Translations under genes and position numbers: made by a program
The notes under the pieces: generated by a model
Told to the model about the DNA's origin: nothing
Database searches by the model: none
What the model saw: the letters and a program-made list of their open reading frames with translations, nothing else
Source: Convolutriloba macropyga
Taxonomy: Eukaryota
Reading direction: 5' to 3'
DNA: 64,000 nucleotides
Assembly: GCF_964194025.1 (NCBI RefSeq)
Contig: NC_134473.1
Location: 55,304,001-55,368,000, forward strand
Shown here: piece after piece, positions 9,411 to 30,846 of the stretch
How positions within the stretch are numbered: position 1 is the first letter of the stretch
Layout of the letters: each line of letters opens with the position of its first letter

Positions 9411-9515
9411 ACTCCTTGAGATTTCAGGGAGTTCAGACCCCACATGAGATTTCAGATTGCCATCAAAACTAGATTTCAGGAACGGTAAGCATGTTCATTC
9501 TCTTTCTAGGCCGAA

Positions 9516-12500: not shown

Positions 12501-13764
12501 AGAATCGAATGCCTGCAATTGCAATGTGACAGCAGAAACAACTGGGTGACGTTATAATTGACTGCAAGGGAAATCCCCCCAGCATATTGCTGTGAATTCC
12601 CATCTACAACATCCACATTACGGTCGAATTGTTTCATTGTTGGTTGGCAACGAGCTTTACAAGGGGAGTTCCCATGAACTCTGGTTCGCCATAAAGTATC
12701 AAGTTTAAAGCTTTTGTTCCACTTGCCACCAAGACGGTATGCGTAGTGGGAATACCAAAATGACGTGCAAAGAAAAACGCACCAGCACTACTAACGAGCA
12801 CATCCAACAAAATGCTGTGAAATCAAACTGGTAATACAGAGGTATAGGCCGCAAAATCTAAAACTGGAACAAACAAGCTCGAGATCAACGCTCGGCCTGG
12901 CAAGTTAGCACCCAGTGATTTTGGCTCATTCCGCAATTTTAAAATACTAATTTCCGTAACCCACTATGTGCTGCTGCTGCTTCTATCCATAATTGTAGAT
13001 CTCAAGGTAAAACGTTGTTCTTGCTTCGTTTTGTCAGTGGTGGCAGCCTTTTTTCGCAGACATTTTCTGCTCGTTTTCATACTTTTTTCTAGCTGTTTGT
13101 TAGATTTTTACTAGCTATCAAATTTTTACTAGCTATCAGACGGAGCCAGCATTTGTTCCACAGGCAACCCATAATCCCCGTTCTCCAAACTCTAAGCTTC
13201 ATACGCTCAATCTACTTCTGAGTAATCACCGAAAAACCGTAACAAAGAATTGTTAACCCCAAAAAGTCCACCTGAGATACACAATGCTGATTTTCCTTTA
13301 ATGAACAAGTAAATACGTGTTTCTTTTGTAATTAAGTTATGTACTTAACTCTACAATGCACCTATAAAATTTTTGAGTTCGATATAATTGATGTTGAGGT
13401 CCTTAATCAAACTAGACAAAGATCTGCTGCACGTCTGCAATAAATATACGAACAAAGAATACTCAGATAAATATACGGACAAAGTGATTAGCTAAACGAT
13501 AACAAAGAGCAAATGGAAAATATCACTGACAGCATCCAAAGTTGATCTTAACGAGCTGAAGAATTCAAAACTTTTGCCCAGTCCATGGGAATTGTAGAGA
13601 AGACAACGAGTAAAACTTGGTCTCAAAACACTAGAGCACGTGATGGTCTCGGCACAGTGCTTTCCTCATAATTTGAGGACTTGCGTGTGCTTGTAAAGAT
13701 GGCAGTTATGGAAGTATTAATTTTGCTGAAATGTATATACAAAAAGCAAAACAAATTCACCGTA

Positions 13765-14940
13765 AGTAGTATAACGTGAGCAAAGCTGGGGGGGGGGGGG
13801 GGGGGTAAAAAGACGTACCTATGTATAAAGATTACGTATAGTCCATATTCCCTCAAATCCCAAAGACGTACCTCACAGCATGATACCCAAGCTGTTCACA
13901 CGAGGGGATTAGCAAGATAATCCCTTGATATTAAATTAGTAAGGTCATTTACCCTTTCCCATTTTACACTTTAATAATGTAAATTTCCAAAAGTGTACCT
14001 CACAGCATGACACCCAAGCTGTTCACACGAGGGGATTAGCAAGATAATCCCTTGATATTAAATTAGTAAGGTCATTTACCCCCTACCATTTTACACTTTA
14101 ATAATGTAAATTTCCAAAAGTGTACCTCACAGCATGACACCCAAGCTGTTCACACGAGGGGATTAGCAAGATAATCCCTTGATATTAAATTAGTAAGGTC
14201 ATTTACCCTTTCCCATATTACACTTTAATAATGTAAATTTCCAAAAGTGTACCTCACAGCATGACACCCAAGCTGCTCACACGAGGGGATTAGCAAGATA
14301 ATCCCTTAATATTAAATTAGGTCATTTACCCTTTCCCATATTACACTTTAAAAATGTAAATTTCCAAAAGTGTACCTCACAGCATGACACCCAAGGTGTT
14401 CACACGAGGGGGATTAGCAAGATAATGCCTTAACAACAAATCAGTCAAGTCATTGACCCCTACCATATTACACTTTACTAATGTCAATTTCCAAAGACGT
14501 ACCTCACAGCTTGAGACCCAAGCTGTTCACACGAAAGGGATTAGCAGGATAATGTTTTAATATTAAATTAGGAAGGATGACTCATTTACAGTTACGTACG
14601 TTAGACGTGATTTTCAAAAATGAATCTCACAGCATGATACCCAAGCTGTTCACACGAAGGGGATTAGCAAGATAATCCTTCAATAATAATTTAGGATGAC
14701 TCATTTACAGTTACGTACGACTTTTCAAAAATGTACCTCACAGCATGACACCCAAGCTGTTCACACAAAGGGGATTAGCAAGATAATCCTTCAATAATAA
14801 TTTAGGATGACTCATTTAAAGTTACGTACGACTTTTCAAAAATGTACCTCACAGTATGATACCCAAGCTGTTCACACTAACGGGGTTAGCAAGATAGTGT
14901 CTTAACAACAAACTAATAAGGACATTTACCCACCCATTCC
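13765..14940 (+). repeat. Left terminal inverted repeat: terminus, G-run and 9 tandem ~110-127 bp units
   Basis: Units start at ~13868, 13995, 14122, 14249, 14372, 14499, 14622, 14733 and 14844, each with core GTACCTCACAGCATGAYACCCAAGCTGTTCACACGAGGGGATTAGCAAGATAAT. Confidence 0.93.
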
Positions 14941-15155
14941 CATATTAACAAAAAAGTACAATTTTTTATTTTTGGTTTTTACAGATTTTTTTTACAATTT
15001 TAATCAATTTTTTGTTTAAAATAGTGTTTCACTGTGTCGTTTTAAACTGAAAATCCAATTTTCCGATTTCAGAAAAAGTTGTATTATTGTTTTGAAAATG
15101 TCTATTTCTCATTTTTTTTTAACCAATCACATAATCTGTCAGATCTGATTTTGGA

Positions 15156-15803
15156 ATGTTGATGCTGAAAAACATTTACGATTCATTTTGTCTTTTTTCT
15201 TGGTTGAACATAAGTAGCCTAAAAAAAATGCAAAATACTCCAATTCTTCCTTTACTTCCTTCAACATCTTTTCTTTCTACTTTTCATTCAGATTTAGATT
15301 ACGCTCCTATCACGGAAGCATCAATATTTAAAACGGTAGTAACCGATAACAATTTGGAATTATCTTTTGAGGTGGATTGCACTAGAGTAACAATTAAAAC
15401 TCAGACAACTAGCTTGACACTTCCGAAGGATTTGTGGAGAACTTTAGGGGCAGCTAGACATCATAACCTCCACCTAGCCGAAGAAAAAGTCAACAATTCA
15501 TTGCTTTCTCTCCAAACTTATTTTCAAACCATTGAAAGAATTCGAAAAGAACAAGGGTTTCACCCGTTGAAAGACAGCAAAGGAATTATGTTCCCGTACT
15601 CTCGTGACATAAATCACTACGGTGTTTGGTGGGTAGAAGACATGTTCTCCAAGCATGCTGACTCATTTTCTAAAAACCAGAAGCCTTCAATCTGCCCGAT
15701 TTCAAAGACCTTATTCTTCCTCCGATCCAGGAAACTGACAATGAAGAGACTCAATCATCTCATCAAAATATTCCTTTCTCGAACTATAAGTGTTCTCCAA
15801 TAG
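15156..15803 (+). CDS. Polinton accessory protein, unknown function (start may be at 15228, MQNT...)
   Basis: 215-aa ORF inside the element, co-oriented with the gene block; no recognisable motif. Confidence 0.5.
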   Translation: MLMLKNIYDSFCLFSWLNISSLKKMQNTPILPLLPSTSFLSTFHSDLDYAPITEASIFKTVVTDNNLELSFEVDCTRVTIKTQTTSLTLPKDLWRTLGAARHHNLHLAEEKVNNSLLSLQTYFQTIERIRKEQGFHPLKDSKGIMFPYSRDINHYGVWWVEDMFSKHADSFSKNQKPSICPISKTLFFLRSRKLTMKRLNHLIKIFLSRTISVLQ

Positions 15804-15839
15804 AATAGTGAGATAACTCGCTTTTGTTCGATGCTAAAT

Positions 15840-16035
15840 TCACCCTCACGTGACTAAATATAGAAAACTCATCTTTGGCATCACGTGATGTTACTAAAAA
15901 TAGAAGTGACATAACTATTACGTCATGATGCACGCTCTATTTTCATTGGTTACGAATTATTTTATAACATCTCATTGGATACGAAGTTTATTTTTCGCTA
16001 CTGTTCTCGTTCTTACTTAAATTTCATTGGTTCAA
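15840..16035 (+). promoter_or_regulatory. Putative Pol II promoter of the Polinton + strand gene block
   Basis: Intergenic cluster of two TCACGTGA E-boxes, TTACGTCA (CRE-like) and three reverse CCAAT boxes (CATTGG at ~15945, 15973, 16025); a pyrimidine tract and TTTCACAG sit directly before the ATG at 16163. Confidence 0.45.
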
Positions 16036-16162
16036 GATATCAACCCCTTTCTTGAAGACAATTTATTCATTTGTTTCTTTGCGGTTTCAATATTCAGTTA
16101 CCCTTGTAGACCCAAATTTTCTGCTTTAAAAACTTTACATACTTCACATTCTCATTTCACAG

Positions 16163-16873
16163 ATGGATCAAAGCTCTGTCTCTCCTAACTCCAAAAAACC
16201 ATTCTCCTTTCCCCTCCGTAAACGAGATTACAAAGGAAAACCAGTTGTTCCCTCATCACAATTGGAATACCACAATGAGAGCATGTTTTCTCTATTTAAA
16301 GACAACAACGATAAAAAAGACAACACCGACTCAAAACCAAATGAGGAGCACGATGGAAGAAACAACTGTTGGTCCTTTCAAGAATACGGGAACCGGAAGT
16401 TTCAAATCAGCATCCCAGAGGAAACCGTCAACTCAAACTCTAACTGGACTCACTTGAAAGTATTTTGCGAAAATGTGGAAAGTGAATATGTTCTGCATCA
16501 ATTTCTGATGCTATCGGCCAGAGAATTGAAGCTTGTTATTGAAAAGATACCTGAGATGATAAAAGAAGCACTACTGTTCGAACCTACTGTAGGTACTGCG
16601 AAGCTGGTGATTGACGAAACTGTGTTCCAACCAACTGATGTTGAGGAAAAAGCAAAATTTGATGTGTTCTGGGAGGTGAGTGAGACTGCTCGACGGAAGG
16701 TGTGTGTAACTAGAATATTTTTCCAAGATGACCCGAATCGATGTTACTTCACAATCAAGCTGTTCACACGAGGGAGTGAAAAGGACATTTTCAGAAGGAA
16801 ATGCTTTCTTTCGGTCAGAATTGGTGAGATGGAGAAACTACACAGAATGAGTGATAAATTATTTCAGTGCTGA
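16163..16873 (+). CDS. Polinton protein with two tandem PC4-like (putative ssDNA-binding) domains
   Basis: Internal duplication W.......RK..I/V......W/Y...LK.F......Y/F......L...E...L resembles the PC4 fold; PC4-like genes are common in Polintons; assigned by eye. Confidence 0.55.
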   Translation: MDQSSVSPNSKKPFSFPLRKRDYKGKPVVPSSQLEYHNESMFSLFKDNNDKKDNTDSKPNEEHDGRNNCWSFQEYGNRKFQISIPEETVNSNSNWTHLKVFCENVESEYVLHQFLMLSARELKLVIEKIPEMIKEALLFEPTVGTAKLVIDETVFQPTDVEEKAKFDVFWEVSETARRKVCVTRIFFQDDPNRCYFTIKLFTRGSEKDIFRRKCFLSVRIGEMEKLHRMSDKLFQC

Positions 16874-16903
16874 ACAAAGTCAAAAATCAAAAAAGATCGC
16901 AAA

Positions 16904-17398
16904 GTGCATAACAGTAATTGTAAATTTTTAATATTGTATGTTGTGATGTTTGTATTTAATCACTTTTTAAAATTTAATGTTCCAGTACAGTTGCTTGATA
17001 TGAACATTGAGGAAATTGTAGCGTTAGAGAAAGAAATCAGTAAACTTTTTGTTGGAAATACAAAACGCAAAAATTATTTTTTGGCTGTCTGTCGAAGCTT
17101 GAACAAAAATGTAGATCTGGATAAAATCAACAGAGAAACTCCGTTTGGGGGACTAATAGGAGTTGGTGACTCAAAGTTAGAAAAACTTCTCAATTGGTCA
17201 AAAATTTTTCGATTACATGCTACATTTCATGATGCCGCAGGCTACCTGAAAACAAATCTAAATATTGGCCCTGGATATTGTTACGTTGTTCCATTTTTTA
17301 ATTCTATATTGAATTTTTGTTTCTTGGGACATATAACAGGTCTTGCATATTGTTGTTTTTTGAAAATGTCATCACGATTCCAATTAATCAAAGTGTGA
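16904..17398 (+). CDS. Polinton hypothetical protein (true start probably 16946 or 17000)
   Basis: ORF in the tightly packed gene block; no motif recognised. Confidence 0.5.
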   Translation: MHNSNCKFLILYVVMFVFNHFLKFNVPVQLLDMNIEEIVALEKEISKLFVGNTKRKNYFLAVCRSLNKNVDLDKINRETPFGGLIGVGDSKLEKLLNWSKIFRLHATFHDAAGYLKTNLNIGPGYCYVVPFFNSILNFCFLGHITGLAYCCFLKMSSRFQLIKV

Positions 17399-17440
17399 AT
17401 CATTATTTCCTAAAGACGAACAAAAATCAGTTGCTCTCTA

Positions 17441-17695
17441 ATGACAGATCATCTCAATCACGCATCTGACTTTATTTTTGATAATAACAATCAGGAAAGA
17501 CCTCCTTGGAAAATCTGTGGTCGCACTTGCTCTCGAACAGCTTTTTTGTCAATATTTCAGTGCTTAGTTGTATTAGTACTGCTTCTGTTTTCAATTATTA
17601 ATCTTATTTTTGCTAGAACTTGTGACGAACGAACAGTTTGGATTGCTATTCTTTCAAGTGCCGTTGGTTATATACTTCCTAATCCCCGAACATAA
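17441..17695 (+). CDS. Small two-helix membrane protein upstream of the ATPase
   Basis: WKICG...hydrophobic helix...INL...WIAILSSAVGYILPNP; two predicted TM segments; abuts the ATPase start. Confidence 0.75.
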   Translation: MTDHLNHASDFIFDNNNQERPPWKICGRTCSRTAFLSIFQCLVVLVLLLFSIINLIFARTCDERTVWIAILSSAVGYILPNPRT

Positions 17696-17696
17696 A

Positions 17697-18437
17697 ATGA
17701 ACAAAATCATTTCAACAAACGAACGAATTTTGATGTATCTTGTTGGTCCTTCCGGATCTGGAAAAACTGTTTTTATCAGTGATATGCTACGAATGAAAAC
17801 TTTTCTGCCATCATTTGATCGAATTTTATACTTTTATAAGCACTTTCAGCCAATTTACGACACAATGATGCAATCAATTGCAGACATAGAATTCATTCAG
17901 GGAGTTGACTTTGATTTAATCGATAACTTACCCGCTGACGGCACTAAATATTTACTTATATTCGATGATTCATTGGACATTCTTTCCAAGTCGGAAAAGT
18001 TCAACGGAATTGCGACAGCCGGTAGACATCGAAACCTAAATTGTGTATATATCAAGCATAATCTCTTCCACAAAAACAAAACTGGACGTGATGCCGAGCT
18101 GCAGACTACTCACATTGTTTTGTTCAAATCACCGAGAGATGTGCAGCAGATTGATATCTTGGGGAGACAGCTAGGCCTCGGAAGACAACTAAAACAGTGG
18201 TATGATGATGCAACACAAGAACCATATGGTCATCTTATGATTGATTTGAGACCATCTACACCTGATTTGTTGAGATACTGTTCAAATGTAACATCATTTC
18301 CCTCAGAATTCTTCGTACCGAACAGTCGTGCTCGTATTACTGATATTAATGATAAACGCACAGAACTATTATACTCTGAAGCTCTTTCGGAATCTCAGCA
18401 AGAATTTTCAACCAGCTTTCCTTCTAAATTGTCCTAA
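17697..18437 (+). CDS. A32/FtsK-like DNA packaging ATPase
   Basis: Walker A GPSGSGKT, Walker B LLIFDD, GRHRN motif, HIVLFKSPRD, PYGHLMIDL; ATG at 17697. Confidence 0.93.
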   Translation: MNKIISTNERILMYLVGPSGSGKTVFISDMLRMKTFLPSFDRILYFYKHFQPIYDTMMQSIADIEFIQGVDFDLIDNLPADGTKYLLIFDDSLDILSKSEKFNGIATAGRHRNLNCVYIKHNLFHKNKTGRDAELQTTHIVLFKSPRDVQQIDILGRQLGLGRQLKQWYDDATQEPYGHLMIDLRPSTPDLLRYCSNVTSFPSEFFVPNSRARITDINDKRTELLYSEALSESQQEFSTSFPSKLS

Positions 18438-18669
18438 AGAGTTCATCAGATTTCTCTGTGAGTGTATTGTAAACTTGATTGAAGGAAACCTCACAGGAGT
18501 AAGAAAAAATCAGTTTGTTCGCTTCCAAAAACAACTTAGAAAGCTCACGTCAAAATCAACAACCCTCAATTCCAGAAGACTTATATTGGGCTCGAAAGCT
18601 GGAATAACAATATTAGGTTACATATATCAACCTTGTATGAACAAATTTTCAACTTTCTTCAATGAGTGA
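18349..18669 (+). CDS. Small Polinton protein (LCECxxNxxxGN type)
   Basis: FIRFLCECIVNLIEGNL motif, which I recall from small Polinton ORFs; overlaps the ATPase 3' end. Confidence 0.7.
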   Translation: MINAQNYYTLKLFRNLSKNFQPAFLLNCPKEFIRFLCECIVNLIEGNLTGVRKNQFVRFQKQLRKLTSKSTTLNSRRLILGSKAGITILGYIYQPCMNKFSTFFNE

Positions 18670-19132
18670 GGTCAAAAAGTTTGTTCTTGTTCCAAAAGAA
18701 CTGTGGGAGTCCAGAAAAGGGAAATTACCGGAACCCTCCTGCGAGATCTATAAAAAGGAAGAAACTGTTTTTCCAGTTATCAAAAAAGCGAAAGAAGAAA
18801 TTAGTTCCGAAAAAACCGATCGTCCACCTAAAGAACTTAAGACAGATCTGGAATTTCACTATAAGAACAGTCCCGAGACATTGAAAACTTTGAAGGAAAT
18901 TTACGAAAACAAACGGTTGAAAGTTTCACTTTCCAATACAATTATTGTTGACAACGTTGACACTGGAGTTGATATAAAAACATTCCTTCATTCAATCAAA
19001 TTGAAAAACGCTCCAGTTGATCCAAACTATTTCCTAATTCTTAAAGTTCTAAATCTGAGACCATATCTGGTTAAAAACAACATTTTGAGGACACAGTATG
19101 GTTCAGACTGGTTCAATTACAGTTTCAGATAG
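18662..19132 (+). CDS. Polinton hypothetical protein preceding integrase
   Basis: 156-aa ORF overlapping both neighbours; begins with KKFVLVP. Confidence 0.7.
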   Translation: MSEVKKFVLVPKELWESRKGKLPEPSCEIYKKEETVFPVIKKAKEEISSEKTDRPPKELKTDLEFHYKNSPETLKTLKEIYENKRLKVSLSNTIIVDNVDTGVDIKTFLHSIKLKNAPVDPNYFLILKVLNLRPYLVKNNILRTQYGSDWFNYSFR

Positions 19133-20042
19133 AATCAAATTGCAGAAGTTGTATAAAGGGAAGGGACCACCAGCTTTCGGTTCTATCAACAACCTAACAA
19201 AATCAAGTGGAATAAGTCGCGAGAAAGTTACAGAATTTTTACAATCAAAAGACTCTTATACGAAGTACAAAGGGATCAGAAGAAAATTTCCCCGGCTAAA
19301 TGCGCATGCTCGCTATATTGATGAGATTTGGTGCTTGGATCTTGCACAAATGGATAAACTATCACAATGGAACCGAGGTATCAACTTTTTACTCGTTACT
19401 GTCGATGTTTTTTCTCGATTCTTGCGAGTAGAAGCATTACGAAGCAAAAGAGCAGAGGGTGTGAAAGCAGCTTTTATCAAAATGTGTTCGAAAAAGAACG
19501 AACTCAATTTCCCGAAAAAATTATGGCTAGATCAAGGAAAAGAGTTCTTTGGAGATATGGCCAATTTCTGCGAGGATGTGGGAGTCAAATATTATCACAC
19601 TTATAGTGAAACAAAAGTAGCTTTTGGCGAGAGAGCTATACGAACCCTGAAAAACTTAATTTACCGCTACCTGGAGGAAAAGGACACATTATCTTACATC
19701 AAAGACCTGCAAATGTTTGTTGACATCATCAACTCTAGAATAAATCGAAGTATTGGTTTGGCTCCCAAAAATGTAGTAAATGCTGACTTTTTGACTGTCA
19801 TGTACAAGCGGATGAAACTACGAAAAAACAAGAAGCCTAATTTTAAAGTAGGTGATAAAGTTCGGTTGGTATTAGTAGGGCACAATTTTCGAAAAGGATA
19901 TAAGCCTCACTATACACATGAAATTTTCCTAATTCGAAAAATAAACACTTTGGCTCCTTTCCTGACTTACTTTGTTGTTGATCAGAAAGGAGAAAACATT
20001 GATGGAATCTTTTACGAGCAAGAATTGTCAAAAGTTAAATAA
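19098..20042 (+). CDS. Retroviral-like (rve) Polinton integrase, no C-terminal chromodomain
   Basis: D (WCLDLAQM), D (LWLDQGKEF), E (GERAIRTLK); VDVFSRF; C-terminal FKVGDKVR...GIFYEQEL then stop. Confidence 0.95.
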   Translation: MVQTGSITVSDRIKLQKLYKGKGPPAFGSINNLTKSSGISREKVTEFLQSKDSYTKYKGIRRKFPRLNAHARYIDEIWCLDLAQMDKLSQWNRGINFLLVTVDVFSRFLRVEALRSKRAEGVKAAFIKMCSKKNELNFPKKLWLDQGKEFFGDMANFCEDVGVKYYHTYSETKVAFGERAIRTLKNLIYRYLEEKDTLSYIKDLQMFVDIINSRINRSIGLAPKNVVNADFLTVMYKRMKLRKNKKPNFKVGDKVRLVLVGHNFRKGYKPHYTHEIFLIRKINTLAPFLTYFVVDQKGENIDGIFYEQELSKVK

Positions 20043-20069
20043 TCATTTTTGAATTAGTCGCGCTAGAAA

Positions 20070-20408
20070 ATGGACGGTTACAATCTGCCTTATTTTAAAG
20101 GAGTTCCTCGTCAGAGAGGGCGTGGCTTTGGAGCCTTGGCAAGAACAGTCGCTAGAACAACTCTCCCAATTCTCAAGAAATACGTTTTACCTGCAGCAAA
20201 AAAAATTGGACGAGATGTAATCGAGTCAGCCATTCCCGAAATTGGAGGTGTTTTATCAGGACAAACTTCAATTAAAAAAGCAGTAAAGAAGACTGCGAAA
20301 TCAACAATACGAAAACAAGTTGGTGGTGGTATGAAAAAGAGGAAAAACACGAGACAAAGTATCGTTCGGCAAAAAATTCGGAAAGACTTTCTGAAGAACC
20401 TTGACTAA
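20070..20408 (+). CDS. Basic core / DNA-condensing protein (adenovirus pVII/pX-like)
   Basis: Lys/Arg-rich, with Gly motifs QRGRGFG and QVGGG resembling adenain cleavage sites; lies upstream of the capsid genes. Confidence 0.7.
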   Translation: MDGYNLPYFKGVPRQRGRGFGALARTVARTTLPILKKYVLPAAKKIGRDVIESAIPEIGGVLSGQTSIKKAVKKTAKSTIRKQVGGGMKKRKNTRQSIVRQKIRKDFLKNLD

Positions 20409-20449
20409 TCATTTTCCCAAACAAACGTCACAGAGTACAGTCAAACATC

Positions 20450-21247
20450 ATGAATTCGTTTTATCTTGAATTAGTGTCCAACGCTTCCTCTCAAGTTTAT
20501 CCTCAAAATACAATGGCTTCATTCACTAATTTTCTTCCCGACAAAATTGAACTGGATGGATCTTGGGAAGTAGCTTTAGTCGAAGTATCATATCCCGGTA
20601 TATGTTATAACGTTGAAGGAGGATTGATGACCTTTCACTATGATGAGAAATTTAAGCATGTCTTTGCCATTCCACCAGCAGTTTTTAACTCTATGGATGA
20701 ATTTGTAAAGAGTCTTACAGATATTCCCAAAAAAGCACGACATCCCAAAAACTTAGATCCTCAATTTTCCATCAACATCGACAAAAAAAGTCGAAGACTA
20801 ACTTTTTGCAATAGAGAATCTCAAAATGTATCATTCAGCAAAAGTTTGGCTGCTAACTTGGGCGTTGAAGCTGACAAACCTGTTATGCCTTATTCGAAAA
20901 GATCATACAACACCAAGTCCTGGGCAACGGCAGATCTCCCTTTTGATATTACTGGAACACATACAGTTTTACTCTACTTGGATATAGTTGAACCCAATTC
21001 AGTCGGTGATGTGAAATGTCCTCTTCTACGCTCCTTTCCATTCAAACACCGAGAGTTCCATAATGATGAGATTAAGAGATCGCAAGTTCTGAGTTATCGC
21101 AGTTTCGAACACTTGAGATTCCATAAAGTAATCAAATCGAACTTCCACAGTATCCATGTAGAATTAAGAAACGCTGCTGGACACCTTGTTCCCTTCTTCC
21201 CTATTGGTCAAGTTCAACTTACTTTATTATTCCAGAAAAAATCTTGA
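20450..21247 (+). CDS. Minor capsid protein (penton, single jelly-roll)
   Basis: N-terminal FYLELVSNAS...YPQNTMASF...L...WEVALVEVSYP and C-terminal YLDIVEP..VGD....LLR...I.VELRN..G..VPF, typical of Polinton mCP. Confidence 0.88.
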   Translation: MNSFYLELVSNASSQVYPQNTMASFTNFLPDKIELDGSWEVALVEVSYPGICYNVEGGLMTFHYDEKFKHVFAIPPAVFNSMDEFVKSLTDIPKKARHPKNLDPQFSINIDKKSRRLTFCNRESQNVSFSKSLAANLGVEADKPVMPYSKRSYNTKSWATADLPFDITGTHTVLLYLDIVEPNSVGDVKCPLLRSFPFKHREFHNDEIKRSQVLSYRSFEHLRFHKVIKSNFHSIHVELRNAAGHLVPFFPIGQVQLTLLFQKKS

Positions 21248-21287
21248 TCATTTCCTCAATTATCATTATAAAAAACGGTCGGCTAAA

Positions 21288-22526
21288 ATGAATTCCTTAT
21301 CTCACTCTATGCTCGACTTTTTTGGGAAAGTTCCAATTTTAGACCCAATTCTTTGGTCCAACGAGCAACAAATATTTCCAACAAATTCCTTAAACGAGTC
21401 AACAATCGAATTTCAATTGGAAACTGATCGTAATATTTTCACTGACTTGCGATCTACTCGATTATTCATCAGAGGAAGGGTTATTAAAGGCGATCGAACA
21501 CGTTTGGATAATGCCGAAGAAACATTATTGGTAAACAATGCTCTTCATTCACTTTTTTCTAATTGCGAAGTCTATCTAAACAATGAACAAGTTCACAGTG
21601 CCAATTCTCTTTATGCTCATCAAGCTTTTGTTTCTGCTGAGTTTTCAGGTACAAAAGGAACGAAGGAAAGCTTGTCTCAATGTCAAGGATATCGATACGA
21701 GATTGAGCCAAACGATTTTAATAAAAGACCGTTTACAGATGTTGTTTTTCAAAAAGATAAAGATGAGTTTACTTTTTACGGTCCGTTGGCAATAGGTCTA
21801 TTTGCTTGTGAAACTTTACTTCTCCCAAATGTCAACCTCAGACTGAAGTTGATCCGGTCTTCTCCAGCGTTCTATATGATCGATACTGGTGGGCTGAACT
21901 CTGAGGCCTTAATTTTGGAAGCTTGCCTTTTTACTAGACAGGTAGCAATCTCAGATAACTGGATGAGAAGTTTCAAAAGCAGACTGCTTCGAGAACCTGC
22001 CATATTTTACTATAATGAAGAACTTCCAAAGACGTTTATTATTCCCGCAGGACAGAACCAGTTTATACAAGAAAATATATTTTCAAACAAACCAATTCGA
22101 ATGATTGATATTGCTATGAATCTAAATAATGAGTTCAGTGGAACATACAACACGAATCCGTTCCATTTTCGTAAATTTGGTCTTCGGCAAGTTAAAATTG
22201 TGCGTGGGAATCAAACTATAGTCAACTTGAAAACAGAAAATCACGTGAGAGCTTATGCTGAAACAATGAAAGCACTCAAGTTTGATGATGACGGTCCTAA
22301 CATTCAATACAAGGATTTTGAAAACCATTTTCATTTATTTTTCGATCTTACTTCAACACAGGAGGCCAATGTCGAAATGCATTTTCCTGATGTAGTTGGA
22401 GCAGGAATTCGTTTAGAGCTCTACTTTGCTAACAATTTGACCAATACTGTAGAATTATTTGTTAGTGGTGAACGTATAAGTTCAATTGCAATTGATAAGG
22501 AGGGATCAGTCACCAAAAATGGATAA
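21288..22526 (+). CDS. Major capsid protein (double jelly-roll)
   Basis: LDFF..., TIEF, DL..TRL, VNNALHSLFSNCEVYLN, LLPNVNLRLKLIR, NPFHF, FFDLTS, IRLELYFA; ATG at 21288. Confidence 0.92.
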   Translation: MNSLSHSMLDFFGKVPILDPILWSNEQQIFPTNSLNESTIEFQLETDRNIFTDLRSTRLFIRGRVIKGDRTRLDNAEETLLVNNALHSLFSNCEVYLNNEQVHSANSLYAHQAFVSAEFSGTKGTKESLSQCQGYRYEIEPNDFNKRPFTDVVFQKDKDEFTFYGPLAIGLFACETLLLPNVNLRLKLIRSSPAFYMIDTGGLNSEALILEACLFTRQVAISDNWMRSFKSRLLREPAIFYYNEELPKTFIIPAGQNQFIQENIFSNKPIRMIDIAMNLNNEFSGTYNTNPFHFRKFGLRQVKIVRGNQTIVNLKTENHVRAYAETMKALKFDDDGPNIQYKDFENHFHLFFDLTSTQEANVEMHFPDVVGAGIRLELYFANNLTNTVELFVSGERISSIAIDKEGSVTKNG

Positions 22527-22914
22527 TCAACAACTCTTACATGTTGTCAACAGGTTCCCACACCTAAAGTTCAAATACCTCGGTTCCTTCCCTGCAGATC
22601 TTCGACCAAAAAATTTACCTACAAACACGTTTTGTATAATCAACATAGATCCATCTACTCAACCGGGCTCCCACTGGATTTTGCTTGCGAATAAGAACGG
22701 AAAGTTGTTCTACGGTGATTCGATGGGAGAAATGTTGCAAAATTATGGCATCAGGACAAAAGCAAACTTTGGTTCATTAGTACAGGAGAAACTCCAAGAT
22801 TCAGAATTGTGTGGTTTATATGCTATTTATTTTGCCCATGTGTTATTTTCCAAAGTCTCATCTAAATATTTAAATGATTTTCATATATTGAAGTTCTTTG
22901 CTGATGTTTTGTAA
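22519..22914 (+). CDS. Adenain/Ulp1-like cysteine maturation protease
   Basis: GSFPAD, INIDPSTQPGSHW (His), YGDSMG (Asp), LQ....CGLY (Gln/Cys); ATG at 22519 overlaps the MCP stop. Confidence 0.92.
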   Translation: MDNQQLLHVVNRFPHLKFKYLGSFPADLRPKNLPTNTFCIINIDPSTQPGSHWILLANKNGKLFYGDSMGEMLQNYGIRTKANFGSLVQEKLQDSELCGLYAIYFAHVLFSKVSSKYLNDFHILKFFADVL

Positions 22915-23140
22915 GTTTTGAAAACCAAAATCTTTAAATGTTTAAACAATAATTTGAAAAATGATGCAAATGGTTTTCAAAACTTTAAAAGTTTGTAAAG
23001 TTTGTATTTAATTGATTGTATGTGTATTTGTTTCTAATTCATTTATTTAAAAAAAACGGCTTTTGTTAAAAAGAGATATTGGTAGGTAAACTGTGAATTA
23101 AAAACAGAGGCGATATAAATATAAGACTAAAGAAAACGAG

Positions 23141-25201
23141 TTATAAATCTAAAGGAGTAGTGTGAATACCATCTTCACAGACTTTACGCTTGGGATAAAA
23201 ATATGACAGTCCCACTTTCTTTAGTTCATAGGTACAAACTTTCTTGTTGTCAACAACTCTGAAGCCACGATTTGTTGAATAAACTCGCTCCTCATCGAAC
23301 AGAACTTTTCTGTACTTGTTTAGGGGCTCCTCAATGTTTTTCTTGTTGAGTCCTTTACTTGATAGTTTAACTGTGTCTGTTTCCTCGTAACAGCAATACG
23401 TCTTTGAACACAGAGCAATCATCTCAGAGCATCTAAATTCTTCCTTAAAAAGTCCAGGAGTTCTCTTGTCAAAGGCAGCATGTTTTTTGCAACATTCTCG
23501 TGGGAAGAAATTGCTGCTGGAGTTTGCTGCAAAGTTATCATTGCAGTCGCTCTGTCTCATCCAGTACCACACTGATCGCATTTCCGGTCGAATTATTTCA
23601 TCAATTTTTTTCTCACTAAGGGCCATGTAGAGACTGTCGGTATCCATTTCAATGAGTTCGTACTTGTTCTTATCACAGAAAGGGGAGAAGAAGTTGTATT
23701 TAAGTTGTAACATGGTGAGTTTGGCGTACTGGAGGATGAAGAATCCTACAATTATTGGTTCCTTATGCTCGATGCGTGTCTTGCTCATTTCTACCTCATA
23801 TATCTGCTCTGGTAGCTCATTCATAGTCTTGAAAAATCTATTGTTAATAAATTTGTCCACCTGTGAGCCTTTCACGTACTTGGTGTTCGTATGTCGACTA
23901 CGGTCCATGATCTGATATCCATACGAACTGTTCCCAATCAGCTTCATTGTCTCCGCAACGACTGTTGACTCCTTATTCTGGTCTCCTTCGCGGCGGGCAT
24001 CGACAACATTCCGAACAAATGTCTCAAAGCAGCGCCGGGGAGTGTATTGGAGAAACCAAAAGACGTCTTTTAGGATCACACCTTTTTCTAGATAAAATAA
24101 CAAAAGTGGTGTAATAACTGGTCCTCGTTCAAGCTTGAAACTGGAAATGAGCATTTTTCTGGGTCTGGGTAGTAATTTGTTGCGTTCTGCAAACTCTTTC
24201 ATATGGTCCCCAATATCATCTCGTCCAACTTCACAATTCTTGAAAATTGGAGGAAAGTCTTCAAAGTACGGATACATTTCCTCTGGAACCTCAAGACTAC
24301 AATCGACGACACCAAACAGTTCTCCACGTTTAATTTTCTCAATGAGCGAGTTTTTGTTCATCGATGGTTGGAAGGGATAATTTGACTTGAGAAAGTCTTT
24401 AACACCTTTTGTGTTGTCTGTCCGACATTTCTTCCATTGACACTCCCAGATCTCTTCAACATTCAACCCCAATCCCTTCAGGTACTCTCTTCTATCATTG
24501 TCACGTTCTCTTCGCTTCAATCCGCTTTCTATGTCCTCGAAGAGAAGCGGTTTTTCCTCTTGACACGGACAAAAATGAAAGAAACATCCCATCGCTTCAA
24601 AAACCGTGTTGCAATGGTTACAAAACCCATCAACTAAATAAGGACCGAGCTTCTTTTGTTTCTTGTGTGTGAACTGGGTTTGTATTTTACAATTGGGGTG
24701 AACCTGTTGGAAGTAGTCCATGACCTGCTGTTCAAAGTAGCTTCTCCAGTTCCTGTTCGGATGAAATTTTTCGGTCTCTTCATTGTACTCCCACTTTGTA
24801 TAGGGTCCTGTTGGCATCTCTTTTGTCATGGAAAAAGGGTACAACTGACTGGCATCTATTCCGACGATGGACTTGCAAACGTTTTCTGACTCTCGAATTT
24901 TTGTTTCACCAACTTTTGCATACCTTGTAAAGATAATTGAGGGTCCCCCTGTTAGCCACTTTCGAATGTAATTATCATATTCTTTATCCTTCTCACAAAA
25001 CGGAAAAAAAGCTGCATCTGTTGACGAATGAAGGAACCTGTTTGCCAAGTTGGGAAGAGTGTAGCCCAACTTCAACATGTCTACTTGTCTTGAGTGGTAA
25101 AAACTGATCATTTTCTTCATAGCCTCAAGTGTAGGTTCGACATCTTTGTTATTGTACCACATGAGGAAGTCACGAAACGTCTGCATACCTTTTTTTCCCA
25201 T
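23141..25201 (-). CDS. Protein-primed DNA polymerase B, C-terminal part (ExoIII, palm/fingers/thumb, inserted VSR-like nuclease)
   Basis: YNNKDV, GGPSIIF, GIDASQLYPFSM, KLIGNSSYG, MDTDSLY, TPGLFKEE; insert YLVDGF...FEAMGCFFHFCPC...IWECQW. Continues the upstream ORF via a -1 shift at ~25190-25196. Confidence 0.95.
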   Translation of the reverse strand: MGKKGMQTFRDFLMWYNNKDVEPTLEAMKKMISFYHSRQVDMLKLGYTLPNLANRFLHSSTDAAFFPFCEKDKEYDNYIRKWLTGGPSIIFTRYAKVGETKIRESENVCKSIVGIDASQLYPFSMTKEMPTGPYTKWEYNEETEKFHPNRNWRSYFEQQVMDYFQQVHPNCKIQTQFTHKKQKKLGPYLVDGFCNHCNTVFEAMGCFFHFCPCQEEKPLLFEDIESGLKRRERDNDRREYLKGLGLNVEEIWECQWKKCRTDNTKGVKDFLKSNYPFQPSMNKNSLIEKIKRGELFGVVDCSLEVPEEMYPYFEDFPPIFKNCEVGRDDIGDHMKEFAERNKLLPRPRKMLISSFKLERGPVITPLLLFYLEKGVILKDVFWFLQYTPRRCFETFVRNVVDARREGDQNKESTVVAETMKLIGNSSYGYQIMDRSRHTNTKYVKGSQVDKFINNRFFKTMNELPEQIYEVEMSKTRIEHKEPIIVGFFILQYAKLTMLQLKYNFFSPFCDKNKYELIEMDTDSLYMALSEKKIDEIIRPEMRSVWYWMRQSDCNDNFAANSSSNFFPRECCKKHAAFDKRTPGLFKEEFRCSEMIALCSKTYCCYEETDTVKLSSKGLNKKNIEEPLNKYRKVLFDEERVYSTNRGFRVVDNKKVCTYELKKVGLSYFYPKRKVCEDGIHTTPLDL

Positions 25202-27465
25202 ATATTTTGGAGCTCCAAGTAATTTTCTTCGGCATTTTGTGGAACTTTCTTGAGTCTCAACTTCTTCAAAATTTCATCCTGCTCCATTCCACCGTTTTTC
25301 AATTCCACAAACTTATCGTAATCGACTGAAAGAACGTTGTGATTCTTCAACTTGCTCCAAAAGCTGTCAATTGGTGGCAGTAGGGATACATTCAACTTCT
25401 CAATACTGTCGAACCATTCATAGGGGAAGAAACCTTTCTCTTCACTCGCTCCATAGGCTTTTAGGAAATTATCCAAAGTTGTCGCTCCTCCCAGGAAGTT
25501 TAAAATGTCCAGAAACTGTAGACCAAGAAAATTCATGCCAATATATTTATTCCCCATTCGAATCACTTTAGGAATAACGTTTTTTTCTAATAAGAGGTGA
25601 TGCAGAAGATACTCTTTTATTAGGTTTAAATCATACCGAGAGCTGTTGAATCCGAAAACAGGTATGGTACTGTAATAATTTTCAAAATCTTGTCTCAATT
25701 TTGACATCACCCTGAGCTCGCTTCTCAGTCTCCTAATTTCAAGATCTTCGTCTTCCTCCACCTCGGGTTCAGCTTCGTTCTCAAATAAGTCTTCCGCTCC
25801 GGTGGGTACCTGCTTGTCTTTCACTGGAACCAGTTGTCGAAGAGCCCAATATTTTTCTTCCAATACCAGTACGAAATCATTGAGTTTCTCCCTCATTAGA
25901 AGCGTGCTCTTTTCCGCTATATTACTCAAGCTGGATACAAAATCACGGATTAGTTGAAGCGGATCTTCGTTGCAAATAAAAATTGGTTGGGAGAGCAGAT
26001 TCGAGGATATTGACACACTAATGGGGACATGTTTTCCAATCCATGAAGTCAAATCTGTGTTTTTGAGTGTACTGTCGGGGACTGTTATTGACTCAAAATC
26101 GAATACGATAAGATGAGAAAACAATCTCAGCTCTTGCGGAACATTAATATTTACATCTTCCAAGCGCTCGAAAATAGTTTCTGATAGCTGATAGGCACCT
26201 GAGGGATAGTGGTGTTTTGTTTTCTCTGAGCAATTCCTCATGTGGACTTCCAAATTATTTGATCTGTCGAAAAAGTGATCGCATACGTAGCACCGGAACT
26301 TTTTGAGGAATTTGTTGATGTCTGCTGTCCAACAGATATGGTTTTCATATCTCAGTAATGAAGTTGTCTTTGAACGTTTCATCGAGGAGCGACGAGTAAG
26401 TTCAGCAAACATATCCGATTGTTCGTCAAAAAATATGGAGTAAACTTGAATATTTCTGTCAACTAGAGCCTCAAGAACAGGAATATCGTCCTCATGTATT
26501 CCTGGAAAGGTTTCGCCATCTCTCCTTGTCGCTGAGAGGAATGTCTGCATTAACTCCATTGTATTTTGCTGTAGATCATTGCTGCCATGTAATTCGTAGG
26601 CCAATGCACGGAACATACACAAATTGTCTTGGTAAGGTTTGTTTTCGCAGTCAGATACAAAACATTTAACTATTGGATTCTTGACTAAGGCTGATGGAAT
26701 AGGTTGTTTAATGCATCCTAGCGGAACACCACTGAGCAGAAATACGAAGAAAGTGACATTTGTAACGCAATAAAACTTCCATTTTGTGTCTGGACGTTGA
26801 TTGATTAGATTTGGTAAAATTTCATCTTGTCTCAGCATTGATTTGATAAAATTGAGATCTGAGTCGTCAGAGAGAACCATGGGATTTAAAAATATGGGGT
26901 TGTTATCTGCTGCGTAGTAGTAACGAAACTCTTCAGGATTTTGCACACTCTGCAGCACGAATCCAAATGAAATATTGATTTTAGCTGAACTGGGTAACTC
27001 GTTGTAAACACAATCCAATTTTTCAATCAAGGTTTCATGATTGATCTCCATTATTTTGAAGTTGTGAACTTTCTTTCTGGACAATTCAAGAACCGAGTCT
27101 CGCAGAAAGTGATGAACCGTTTGAAGTTCACTATGAAGAGCGGGAGATTCTCCATAGATAGATAAGTCAACTTCATCGTAGGTGCTAGGTGTTGAACGCT
27201 GGTGACTGTTTCGTTTGTGATGTAGAATTTGATAATAAGTAGAGAAGGATAAGGGACAGCTGCTACAAGAAAATTTTTTCTTGATAATCAGAGACGGTGC
27301 ATGTACAGAAGCAATGTGTTTCTGCAATTTTGCTTCGTCCGGAAATGATTGTGAGCATTGTGAACATCTTTTTGCGTGAAGCTTCTGATGTCTGCTCATA
27401 TTGGATTTCATAATAAGCTTCTTGCAGGAAGAACACTGTTCCTTTGGGTTAGAATTTCTGGGCAT
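25117..27465 (-). CDS. Protein-primed DNA polymerase B, N-terminal part (C2H2 zinc fingers, terminal-protein region, OTU-like domain, ExoI/II)
   Basis: Likely ATG at 27465 (MPRNSNPK) after a TTTTCAG acceptor; three N-terminal C2H2 fingers; QDNLCMFRALA...ENHI; VFDFES (ExoI), FNSSRYDLNLI (ExoII), KGFFPYEW. Confidence 0.92.
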   Translation of the reverse strand: MPRNSNPKEQCSSCKKLIMKSNMSRHQKLHAKRCSQCSQSFPDEAKLQKHIASVHAPSLIIKKKFSCSSCPLSFSTYYQILHHKRNSHQRSTPSTYDEVDLSIYGESPALHSELQTVHHFLRDSVLELSRKKVHNFKIMEINHETLIEKLDCVYNELPSSAKINISFGFVLQSVQNPEEFRYYYAADNNPIFLNPMVLSDDSDLNFIKSMLRQDEILPNLINQRPDTKWKFYCVTNVTFFVFLLSGVPLGCIKQPIPSALVKNPIVKCFVSDCENKPYQDNLCMFRALAYELHGSNDLQQNTMELMQTFLSATRRDGETFPGIHEDDIPVLEALVDRNIQVYSIFFDEQSDMFAELTRRSSMKRSKTTSLLRYENHICWTADINKFLKKFRCYVCDHFFDRSNNLEVHMRNCSEKTKHHYPSGAYQLSETIFERLEDVNINVPQELRLFSHLIVFDFESITVPDSTLKNTDLTSWIGKHVPISVSISSNLLSQPIFICNEDPLQLIRDFVSSLSNIAEKSTLLMREKLNDFVLVLEEKYWALRQLVPVKDKQVPTGAEDLFENEAEPEVEEDEDLEIRRLRSELRVMSKLRQDFENYYSTIPVFGFNSSRYDLNLIKEYLLHHLLLEKNVIPKVIRMGNKYIGMNFLGLQFLDILNFLGGATTLDNFLKAYGASEEKGFFPYEWFDSIEKLNVSLLPPIDSFWSKLKNHNVLSVDYDKFVELKNGGMEQDEILKKLRLKKVPQNAEENYLELQNIWEKKVCRRFVTSSCGTITKMSNLHLRL

Positions 27466-27647
27466 TTTCGCTGAAAATAAAAAATGAAATGTTAGATTGG
27501 AAGTGAGAAAGGAGTAAAAAAAATTGTTAAAATGAAAGTTGCGGTGGAATAAAAATTTGTCAGAAGTTGGAATGATTATTGTACTCCACAGCACTCAATT
27601 CTGTAAATCAGAAAAACAAAACGGAAATGAAAAGTCCTTTATCAAAT

Positions 27648-27895
27648 ATGACGTAATTGCGACGACAAAATGACGTAACTATAACGACATAATGATGAAA
27701 TTGTGACGACGAAAGGACGTAATTATAAAGACATAAAGACGTAATTGTGACGACATAATGACGTAATTGTGACGACATAATGGCGTAATTGTGACGACAA
27801 AATGACGTAATTATGACGATAGAATTACGTAATTTTGACGACAAAATGACGTCATTTTGACGACACTATGACGTAATTGTGACGTGTTATGATGT
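27648..27895. repeat. About 11 x 22-bp tandem repeat ATGACGTAATTGTGACGACAWA (CRE/ATF-like sites) upstream of pPolB
   Basis: Directly visible periodic repeat containing TGACGT(A/C)A and TGACG half-sites. Confidence 0.9.
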
Positions 27896-28029
27896 TATTG
27901 TGATGTTATGATTAATTTTGACTATAAAATAGTGACTAATTGCCTAATCATGTGAGAATTTTATGATTTTCAATGGTTTTTTTTATTTCAATAATTGGGT
28001 ATATATTCCTTCCTCAAAAACATGTTTTA

Positions 28030-28650
28030 ATAAAAGTAAACTTACCAGTTTCTTTTTTGGATTTTAAGCTGAAGTGAAGTGTTGTATTATCTACTATAGG
28101 GGGAAGTTCTGGCTGGCTAAAATGGTCCAGTTTAATTACAGGAGCAAAGGAAAATTTCTATTAATTAAATTTATTTGCTTACCCGCTTCAACACTGCAAG
28201 TGATCAACTTGAAACTGGCAACAAGGAGAAAGAAACAAAGACTATCTGAAAAAAAAGATAAATTAAACTATAATTTTGATCAACTGATTTTTAGAAGTTG
28301 TTTGAAATAATGAATGGGAGTAGTGGCTTGGGAATAGGAGTAGTGTCCTAATAAAAGCAAACTTACCAGTTTTATTTTGGACTTGGAAGCGATGTGATGT
28401 GATGCAATATATACTATTTGGGGATATTTTGGCTGGCTAAAATGGTCCAGTTTAAATACAGGAACAAAGGAAAATTTCTATTAGTTGAAATTGTTTGCTT
28501 ACCTGCTTCAACACTGCAAGTGTTCAACTTGAAACTCTTCTTGCTGCAAGGAGAAAGAAACAAAGACTATCTGAAAAAAATGATAAATTAAACGAGAATT
28601 TTGACCAACTGATTTTTAGAAGTTGATTGAAATAATGAATAGGAGTAGAG
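28030..28650. repeat. Diverged ~320 bp direct duplication inside the Polinton, with minus-strand splice signals
   Basis: ~28030-28330 versus ~28351-28648; ACTTACC, GCTTACC, CTAAAATG and CTGAAAAAA are kept in both copies. Confidence 0.85.
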
Positions 28651-28684
28651 ACTAATATATGAGCCAGCCAATCTAATTTGTTTT

Positions 28685-29597
28685 TGAGGGATTATCTTGC
28701 TAATCCTTTTCGTGTGAACAGCTTTGGTATCATGCTGTGCGGTACATTTTTGAAAATCACGTCTAACGTACGTAACTGTAAATGAGTCATCCTACCTAAT
28801 TTAATATTAAAACATTATCCTGCTAATCCCTTTCGTGTGAACAGCTTGGGTATCAAGCTGTGAGGTACGTATTTGGAAATTGACATTAGTAAAGTGTAAT
28901 ATGGTAGGGGGTCAATGACCTGACTGATTTGCTGTTAAGTCACTATCTTGCTAATCCCCTTCGTGTGAACCGCGTGGGTATCATGCTGTGAGGTACGTTT
29001 TTGGAAATTTACATTATTAAAGTGTAAAATGGTAAGGGGTCAATGACCTTACTGATTTGTTGTTAAGACACTGTCTTGCTAATCCCTTTAGTGTGAACAG
29101 CTTGGGTGTCATGCTGTGAGGTACACTTTTGAAAATTTACATTAGTAAACTGTAATATGGTAGGGGGTCAATGTCCTGACTGATTTGCTGTTAAGGCACT
29201 ATCTTGCTAATCCCCTTCGTGTGAACAGCGTGGGTATCATGCTGTGAGGTACGTTTTTTGGAAATCTAGTAACCGTACGTAAGTGTAAATGAGTCACCCT
29301 ATCTAATTTAATATCAAAACATTACCTAACTAATCCCCTTTGAGAGAACAGCTTGGGTGTCATGCTGTGAGGTACGTCTTTGAAAATTTACATTATTAAA
29401 GTGCAATATGGGAATGAGTAAATGACCTAATTTAATATTAAGGGATTAACTTGCTAATGCCCCTCGTGTGAACAGCTTGGGTATCAAGCTGTGAGGTACT
29501 TTCTTGGAATTTGAGCGAAAATGGGCTATACCTAATCTTAATACATAGGTACTTCCTTTTACCCCCCCCCCCCCTGTCTTGCTTAACTATTACTACT
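28685..29597 (-). repeat. Right terminal inverted repeat: 7 tandem ~125 bp units, C-run and terminus
   Basis: Reverse complement of the left core (...GTGTGAACAGCTTGGGTRTCATGCTGTGAGGTAC) at ~28733, 28857, 28984, 29113, 29241, 29363 and 29488. Confidence 0.93.
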
Positions 29598-30846
29598 ACC
29601 GTATTTGAGGATATGACTACGAACGCAGCCCCACGGAGTCATAGCCACTGTGAAAACGAATGAAAAATGGGCAAACAATCTTGATGCATTTCATTTGCTT
29701 CAGCCGAATATTTGCTTTGCCTGAAGGGTAGCGAACACCAGGAGTGTTACGATTCTTCTTTTTGTAAAATTATACTGGATGGTGAGTCCCATGCTCACTA
29801 TCAAACATGGAAATGAACTTAATCAAACGCAAGGAATGCATCCAATGCTGCTACAAAACGACTGCAACAAGAAAAATCTCCACCTAAATAAAACTAACGC
29901 TCCTCTGCTGTCTTTAAGCCCACCCAGGGCTAAATTGCGTCAACGGTCACTGGAGGCGATCTCACAGACAATACGCCTAATGATTAATTTGATTTTGAAA
30001 TCACTACTGTAGAAACTATTTGAGTCAAACCTCTCGAAGTTCGTGCAAACGCAATTAGACTTAGTACGAGCAACGAGTCTGACCGAATAGTTAGCTGCGG
30101 CCTGCATTCGGCTGAAAATCCAAATTCTCACCCTATTCAAATTTGTGCAAACGTGATTTCTTTAACAAAAATATGACAAATAAGAACCTCAAATATGCCC
30201 AACATTGTAACCGGGGAAGATTTGATTGAGCAATTTGTAAAAATGTTTGACTAATGTTTTAGTGATGTGGACATTTTGGTCCCACAATAATTTTGGTAAC
30301 CTTGATTGTTGTCATCAACATTCTATTTGATTAAAAATTTCACCACCAAAGGAAGGCAATGACCCACAATGCACTTCTGGAAGCCCGCTTACTCCAAAAG
30401 CTGGAAAAACGATTTTCCAATGATTTTACGAACCAGCACTCGTTATGAGGCAATTAAAACTCTGTCAGAGAAAGGAGAAAGAGTTCATTATTATGGGTGA
30501 TCTGAAGCATAGCATATCATGGATCCGACAATATTGAAAATATAGGCTTCAAAATTTGTGTTAAGAATCTCATCAGGTCACCCCTCATTTTTCAGACAAG
30601 GATTAGTACAGCAAAATTCCCCCGAAATAGAATTTGTCAATTGAATCTCTTATTTAAACAATGATGCCAAGCGATTGTGACACGCTATGGACCTGTACGT
30701 CTTCTGTGTTGTATCTCGAAGGTTTTCGAAAAAGTGTTCGACCCACTTTATAATTATTGTCAACCCAAACTAAATAAAAATCAGTTTGGGTTAAGAAAAA
30801 GTTAATCTTTGACCACTCAGATTCTGTCATCTCTAGATTCTTTATT

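Follow-up and report, generated by a model that had tools for sequence, protein, structure and literature searches.

The window, a 64,000-nucleotide stretch of the Convolutriloba macropyga genome (NC_134473.1, positions 55,304,001 to 55,368,000), carries a Polinton element of 15,833 bp at 13765-29597 with AGTAGT at both ends. The element is flanked by a target-site duplication (TSD) and contains twelve open reading frames (ORFs) on the plus strand and a split minus-strand gene for the polymerase pPolB. Among related copies in the same genome, short variable tags at the element ends co-vary with three segments of pPolB, and these segments probably bind the tags as a lock-and-key origin code. 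The ends and the polymerase of the window copy are laid out as follows.

13759-13764, no strand: left TSD, ACCGTA, present as a single copy in the empty allele.
13765-13830, plus strand: left terminus, with AGTAGT, tag A (nucleotides 7-14), constant AGCA, tag B (nucleotides 19-23), a G-run and inner variable sites.
13765-14945, plus strand: left terminal inverted repeat (TIR), largely an array of 111-127-bp units.
23141-27465, minus strand: pPolB, with zinc fingers, terminal protein (TP) region, vOTU C283/H376, CCHC finger, exonuclease and palm; frameshifted near 25190.
26200-26277, minus strand: pPolB residues 397-422, comprising the CCHC zinc finger and its linker; residue 407, at helix position +6, varies together with terminal nucleotide 14.
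26668-26709, minus strand: pPolB residues 253-266, the vOTU start, which co-vary with terminal nucleotides 19-23.
27436-27456, minus strand: pPolB N-terminal arm, residues 4-10, which co-varies with TIR sites behind the G-run.
27643-27884, no strand: 22-bp tandem array of 11 copies, TGACGT-rich, upstream of pPolB.
28656-29597, minus strand: right TIR, whose terminal tags fit the window copy's own pPolB.
29598-29603, no strand: right TSD, ACCGTA, a perfect 6-bp duplication of the left one.

The 6-bp TSD and the TIRs with an (AGT)2//(ACT)2 end motif are Polinton features. Both TIRs are about 1 kb long and consist of arrays of 111-128-bp units. A first-pass annotation of this DNA had described the termini and a perfect 6-bp TSD. 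The TSD was recovered (ACCGTA at 13759-13764 and 29598-29603), as were the AGTAGT ends; the TIR arms are just 85% identical over their first 140 nucleotides. The left and right flanks of the insertion are each single-copy in the host genome assembly. Four sequencing runs were compared at this site. In three of them, all from one study, a contig fuses the left and right flanks via one ACCGTA, and a second contig passes from the left flank into the element without a difference; the fourth run had no coverage of the junction. Because empty and filled contigs occur in the same three runs, the insertion is unfixed. Around the insertion (window 13209-13764 and 29598-30100), the two host haplotypes show numerous small indels and a divergence of about 7-8%. 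The window copy has 16 private substitutions in 11,425 nucleotides, the third lowest value among 28 copies. Its closest sister is 99.0% identical, and no identical sister was found among the copies compared. The insertion is young as well as unfixed. Old age as the source of the TIR mismatch was rejected on three grounds: the right end is 99.3% similar to ends found in two other copies, left and right ends agree in most copies, and the load of private changes is small.

The core genes on the plus strand are these.

17697-18437, plus strand: A32/FtsK-type packaging ATPase, Pfam PF04665 (Pox_A32) at E 1e-8, with Walker A/B.
19098-20042, plus strand: retroviral-type (rve) integrase, PF00665 at E 6e-9, with D-D-E motifs.
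20070-20408, plus strand: basic core-like protein, 25% K+R, in or beside the Maverick pw position (by synteny).
20450-21247, plus strand: penton (minor capsid) candidate, 27-37% identical to syntenic genes.
21288-22526, plus strand: major capsid protein (MCP) candidate, 33-40% identical to syntenic genes; nonsynonymous-to-synonymous ratio (N/S) 0.06.
22519-22914, plus strand: adenain-type maturation protease with H52/D67/Q93/C98; weak Peptidase_C5 match, E 0.033.

The H, D, Q and C of the protease are invariant in all four aligned sequences, and its relatives match PF00770 at E 0.002. MCP and penton gave no meaningful match in Pfam or NCBIfam, and the MCP profile had no PDB match. Both are candidates named from homologues in syntenic elements and from motifs; their size, synteny and 27-41% identity to syntenic genes would fit jelly-roll capsid genes. 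The same gene module recurs in elements from metagenome loci at 27-63% identity. In pPolB, the exonuclease and palm motifs are present, with a weak PF03175 match (E 0.015). Of the full virion module plus integrase and polymerase claimed at first pass, the ATPase, integrase, protease, basic core-like protein and split pPolB ORFs were confirmed, and MCP and penton stand as candidates.

That annotation had also called the element nearly intact with only one lesion. The window copy has three private frameshifts, near 15670, 16860 and 25190. The first two, in the accessory ORFs 15156 and 16163, are absent from 38/38 aligned copies each; the third, in pPolB, breaks the frame into ORFs of 782 and 686 amino acids and is absent from 37/37 aligned copies, which led us to reject a programmed frameshift. 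All three were called from the assembled sequence, and each adjoins a homopolymer run, of 5, 3 and 7 bases respectively. With a frameshift within its polymerase and a left end that does not match that polymerase (see below), the window copy is now defective and, taken alone, an ordinary young defective Polinton.

The first pass had proposed looking for other copies and empty sites. Empty alleles were found as described, and the MCP gave 101 scored matches in the host genome assembly. Our family sample comprised both halves of the best 40 of these 101 matches and the polymerase side of 58 more. The best 40 copies split into two subfamilies of 27 and 13, whose third positions diverge by 46% in the polymerase core and by 10% in the MCP. 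A perfect TSD of its own flanks 30 of the 34 copies in which both ends were found. N/S is 0.18 for variants shared among copies, 0.13 between subfamilies and 0.70 for private variants; taken in aggregate, the first two classes are therefore constrained by purifying selection, whereas private variants are near neutral. Across 700 sites, linkage decays from an r2 of 0.34 below 50 bp to 0.09 at 0.5-1 kb, and site pairs with all four gametes rise from 22% to 64%. Rapid linkage decay, together with chimeric copies with clean TSDs, provides population evidence of replication and recombination as free genomes. The family pattern is that of a recombining virus population sampled by integration. Scans of viral contigs with the MCP and one alignment found nothing.

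Whether this population still exists is a separate matter. All 13 genes are at family length in 1/40 of the best copies, leaving 39/40 with at least one gene off that length, and this, with the near-neutral private variants and the lack of an identical sister of the window copy, would be expected of a recently extinct population whose coupling and selection record past activity. Such a fossil is possible, if on the improbable side: the window insertion site is unfixed, several copies have about 0.13% private change, and 10/40 of the best copies retain an uninterrupted pPolB frame of at least 1,400 codons. The unfixed site, the 16 private substitutions, the purifying selection on shared variants and the 30/34 perfect TSDs bear out the earlier suggestion of a recent insertion from a possibly still active lineage. 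Extinction would concern present activity and is compatible with a lock-and-key function of the ends.

Behind AGTAGT, each end carries the 8-nucleotide tag A, constant AGCA, the 5-nucleotide tag B and the G-run. Nucleotides 7-23 differ by 32% between copies of the same subfamily, compared with 2-6% at third positions of most genes, and tags A and B are found in many combinations. The terminal pattern occurs 448 times in the host genome assembly, against once for a reversed control. The two ends match in most sister copies, unlike in the window copy. Among the 32 copies having both ends and the polymerase, seven have unlike tags, and one of these seven is explained by a single-base deletion. 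The other six, among them the window copy, all (6/6) have a polymerase-side end that fits their own pPolB. The window copy is chimeric, with a right end that suits its polymerase and a left end that does not.

We retrieved 99 polymerase-side stretches, 87 with the whole pPolB gene and 71 of these also with the right end; coupling was scored in the 71. Short stretches of pPolB co-vary with variable bases in the outermost ~60 nucleotides. After kinship was partialled out, codons 241-320 follow tag B (r 0.60 and 0.50 in subfamilies 1 and 2) and codons 401-480 follow tag A (r 0.74 and 0.22). In both subfamilies, a single form of residues 253-266 accompanies each tag B allele. Single sites agree closely: nucleotide 14 with residue 407 in 70/71 copies (independent pairs 17:0 on the polymerase-core tree, which was used throughout), nucleotide 23 with residue 262 in 70/71 (19:0), nucleotide 20 with residue 264 in 68/71 (14:0), and an inner site with residue 6 in 63/66 (11:0). 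The sites behind the G-run pair with residues 4-10, and nucleotides 8-9 partly with exonuclease residues 451 and 471. The adjusted mutual information of the pairs was 1.0, 0.86 and 0.92 in one subfamily and 0.79, 0.83 and 0.92 in the other, against null maxima of 0.52 and 0.73 from 40 polymerase-core single-nucleotide polymorphisms per subfamily.

The three segments lie merely 2-3.4 kb from the right end, and in the first 22 copies tag B weakly tracked ATPase, integrase, MCP and polC (p 0.01-0.03). Coupling might then reflect ancestry and linkage without any functional reading: a small number of divergent founders would have passed on the pPolB N-terminus and right end as one block. We regard this as very improbable. 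Four cross-pair controls agreed at chance level (30/71, 30/71, 33/67 and 32/70); in particular, nucleotide 14 ignores residues 262 (30/71) and 6 (33/67), both encoded in the interval that separates it from residue 407. When tags four nucleotides apart reassort, so do their partner segments, which are separated by about 140 codons. The DNA between pPolB and the end correlates with the tags at r of at most 0.18, and the inner TIR and spacer are nearly uncoupled from them. The same pairs recur in two subfamilies whose polymerase cores differ by 46% at third positions. Since nucleotide 14 ignores the intervening residues and the tags reassort with distant segments, matching must be re-established after crossovers, and this implies selection.

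The N-terminal half of pPolB (window 25201-27465) is the most diverse coding region of the family, with a third-position difference of 0.15 compared with 0.02-0.06. This diversity reaches beyond the three coupled segments, and residue 35 tracks some TIR sites; the N-terminal zinc fingers of pPolB may read further TIR sites.

The segment paired with tag A contains a C2H2-type finger at pPolB 392-412 (PF00096 at 390-410) with CCHC ligands, a plausible DNA reader. Its Arg at helix position -1 and Asn at +3 are nearly constant, as are G16 and A15. At +6, an Arg-type helix accompanies G14, Val accompanies A or C, and Asn accompanies T. Asn facing A is a contact rule of zinc fingers. This geometry agrees with the Arg-G rule and with the antiparallel triplet model, both set out in the available part of PMC4330361: positions -1 and +3 would face G16 and A15, and +6 would face nucleotide 14. 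The protein segments are likewise consistently antiparallel along the DNA, bases further inward pairing with more N-terminal residues, as a single polypeptide seated on the end would be expected to show.

The selected step cannot be read from co-variation, and instead of origin recognition the coupling might serve packaging or excision, a hand-over to the integrase, or self-regulation of the pPolB promoter. A preprint suggests, in the part available, that pPolB and DDE integrases share end specificity or an adapter (10.64898/2026.10.13.758929). We consider another step unlikely. Tag A shows no association with integrase or ATPase and tag B a weak one, copies whose left end is mismatched were inserted with good TSDs, and the antiparallel order, running from exonuclease to N-terminus, is in keeping with a polymerase seated at the end. 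As a direct tag partner, the integrase or ATPase was dropped, its association being weak or none. Copying of the tags from the DNA encoding the partner peptides was likewise set aside for want of a convincing sign: the longest shared words were 5-9 nucleotides near the peptides against 5-7 in a control stretch, slightly longer near residues 253-266.

Several points weigh against a lock-and-key reading of the tags by pPolB. What we observed is co-variation; the binding of tags by pPolB is what we infer from it. The residue classes were chosen after inspection of the data and include a few private variants. A held-out test with pairs fixed beforehand was small and imperfect (6/7, 5/7, 5/6 and 4/4 correct), as 7/60 new stretches had the pPolB N-terminus and two of these were arms of one element. 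Polymerase-core trees of recombining copies are unreliable, and the independent-pair counts are therefore approximate. Tag A as a block follows the finger less well in subfamily 2 (Mantel r 0.22), and nucleotides 7-11 have partial partners only. Enrichment for amino-acid changes is seen in residues 253-266 (17 amino-acid to 8 silent states) and residues 4-10 (5 to 2) but is absent from the finger (10 to 12). One-to-one finger codes are moreover described as context-dependent in the available part of PMC4330361. Finally, the arms-race motive considered below is a hypothesis that we hold no more strongly than its negation.

On the lock-and-key reading, pPolB would be seated at the genome end; nucleotides 14-16 would be read by its CCHC finger, nucleotides 19-23 by the vOTU start and sites further inward by the N-terminal arm. 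Free linear genomes would recombine, and the sole end to fire would be the one that fits the polymerase. In adenovirus, inverted terminal repeats are repaired through a panhandle; similarly, the firing end would then rewrite the opposite end through the TIR panhandle. The window copy would have integrated as a fresh recombinant before its left end was rewritten, which is possible because the integrase would need the invariant AGTAGT only. Its left end may instead have undergone gene conversion after insertion.

A second family shares these ends. Following 60 termini outside the MCP list inward, we found that 15 led to genes of this Polinton, 42 to one other related family and 3 elsewhere. Twelve elements of the related family were sampled from both ends, four of them with at most 1.6 kb unsampled. 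These four elements had no frame longer than 332 codons and no match to a capsid, an integrase or a whole polymerase. The elements are abundant, 11-33 kb long, have Polinton termini, and in several cases are long palindromes. Their own conserved ORF has 152 matches in the host genome assembly, often as inverted pairs; four of their ORFs gave nothing useful in Pfam. They carry short fragments of the polymerase or of ORF 16946 (below), and one has a DEDD/MAEL-like ORF. Their tag B allele was known from autonomous copies in 42/42 termini and their tag A allele in 34/42, and this satellite most likely borrows the polymerase of its helper. If so, rare keys could gain an advantage, and the tags would diversify as rare keys escape defective copies and the satellite family. 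The full scheme, a modular Polinton polymerase-origin code with at least three swappable pPolB segments, in which recombination and panhandle repair would make new matches under an arms race with an abundant palindromic satellite that would have copied almost all of the keys, is in our judgement evenly poised between right and wrong. Separately, one 10-kb element consists of two polymerase-side halves head to head, with the pPolB N-terminus behind each end.

Six further ORFs of the window copy complete its gene set.

15156-15803, plus strand: orphan ORF 15156, probable start Met26 at 15231; 191-192 amino acids in the family; N/S 0.19-0.24; frameshifted near 15670.
16163-16873, plus strand: ORF 16163, predicted tandem PUR/PC4-fold protein, 236 amino acids compared with 249 in the family; frameshifted near 16860.
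16946-17398, plus strand: ORF 16946, all-helical conserved protein with H91-x3-H95-D96 and GPGY; 61 relatives.
17441-17695, plus strand: small hydrophobic (membrane-type, by hydropathy) protein directly upstream of the ATPase, 33-53% identical in metagenome loci.
18349-18669, plus strand: conserved gene at the Maverick pm position, named by synteny alone.
18662-19132, plus strand: conserved gene at the Maverick pz position, named by synteny alone.

The first-pass annotation had listed four ORFs of unknown function, at 15156, 16904, 18349 and 18662. Three proved to be conserved genes of the Polinton module, and ORF 15156 stays unexplained: searched via a natural sister copy, it recovered just unnamed Atlas clusters with weak recognition, and it had no match in 37 metagenome loci. 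The ORF placed at 16904 has its first ATG at 16946, with close relatives beginning 18 codons further on, and ORFs 16163 and 17441 had been missed. The order of ORFs 16946, 17441, 18349 and 18662 is kept in distant elements, and by position 18349 and 18662 correspond to pm and pz of vertebrate Mavericks. In related metagenome Polintons, a DEDD-exonuclease-like gene sits between the 16946 and 17441 homologues, which the window family does without; the order penton then basic gene in those elements is swapped in the window family, and several of them carry extra PC4-like ORFs.

Structure prediction, which the first pass had recommended for the orphans, was productive for an ORF outside its list. 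The model of ORF 16163 (pLDDT 83) has two repeats of four strands plus a helix and resembles Pur-alpha (Foldseek E 1.6e-4; Z 13.7, root mean square deviation 3.1, 134 aligned); its Atlas lead was PF02229 at 0.78, and 15 relatives gave nothing useful in Pfam. From this model, ORF 16163 is likely to be the single-stranded DNA-binding protein needed by strand-displacement replication. ORF 16946 was modelled without a fold match: Z reached at most 4.2, against unrelated chains, and neither Foldseek nor profile searches gave a match. H95 is invariant and D96 nearly so among its relatives, and a named relative comes from an acoel worm. By its His-Asp motif alone, it is a possible PLA2-like protein.

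CACGTG/TACGTC words related to the 22-bp array upstream of pPolB also lie upstream of ORF 16163 (window 15850-15930); we take the array and these words to be possible host-factor (CRE-like) promoter elements. A pyrimidine tract plus AG, resembling a splice acceptor, stands right before the ATG of both ORF 16163 (16140-16163) and pPolB (27466-27500) and may point to introns in the 5' untranslated region or to trans-splicing. Outside the element, an intronless frame for the ribonucleotide reductase small chain lies 3 kb to the left (window 9510-10625, Pfam E 3.5e-117), and a reverse-transcriptase fragment is found at window 11658-12116.

The element resembles animal Mavericks/Polintons, as described in the available part of PMC8097293, in its end motif, 6-bp TSD and size (their intact elements are 12.7-24.6 kb), in a core gene set where two small genes separate ATPase from integrase, and in a family of mostly degraded copies with core genes under purifying selection. 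Unlike in them, pPolB is the one minus-strand gene, and the basic gene comes ahead of the penton. Conservation falls inward from the Maverick end motif, and tags varying with the polymerase were not found described in that part of the source (PMC8097293). The gene classes are also those of adintoviruses (PMC8502044, available part), whose supplementary maps bear the labels PLA2X, MAEL, MOSUB and SSDBP, the third of which we read as the PC4 orthologue MoSub1. PLA2-like and ssDNA-binding or PC4-like accessory genes are thus already labelled there (PMC8502044). Compared by labels rather than sequences, ORF 16946 differs in having no evident basic pX-like tail and no PLA2 fold match, and ORF 16163 in its two-repeat Pur-alpha-like fold. 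In pPolB, the vOTU Cys/His, exonuclease and palm motifs follow the order TP-vOTU-EXO-PALM given in 10.1101/2024.03.18.585575; in the available part of that work the vOTU is a protease, 'zinc' is absent from the main text, and no origin-reading role of pPolB segments was found. Full-text literature searches returned neither acoel Polintons nor co-variation between polymerase and termini, with mention in supplements possible.

As far as we found, how Polintons start replication and recognize themselves has so far been inferred from gene content. Because natural variation points to single residues and bases, origin recognition becomes testable with short peptides and oligonucleotides, and a candidate helper-satellite pair can be named. 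The same co-variation scan is applicable to any genome with many Polinton copies. If the proposed code is real, one host genome records a whole recognition code and its chase with a satellite. Adenovirus origins are recognized by pTP and polymerase, plasmid incompatibility arises from Rep and iterons, and phages form helper-satellite pairs. By analogy, the Polinton would combine a replication protein specific for its own origin, panhandle repair of the ends and a parasite that borrows the machinery; it differs from those systems in that several alleles segregate and reassort in one virus population within one host genome.

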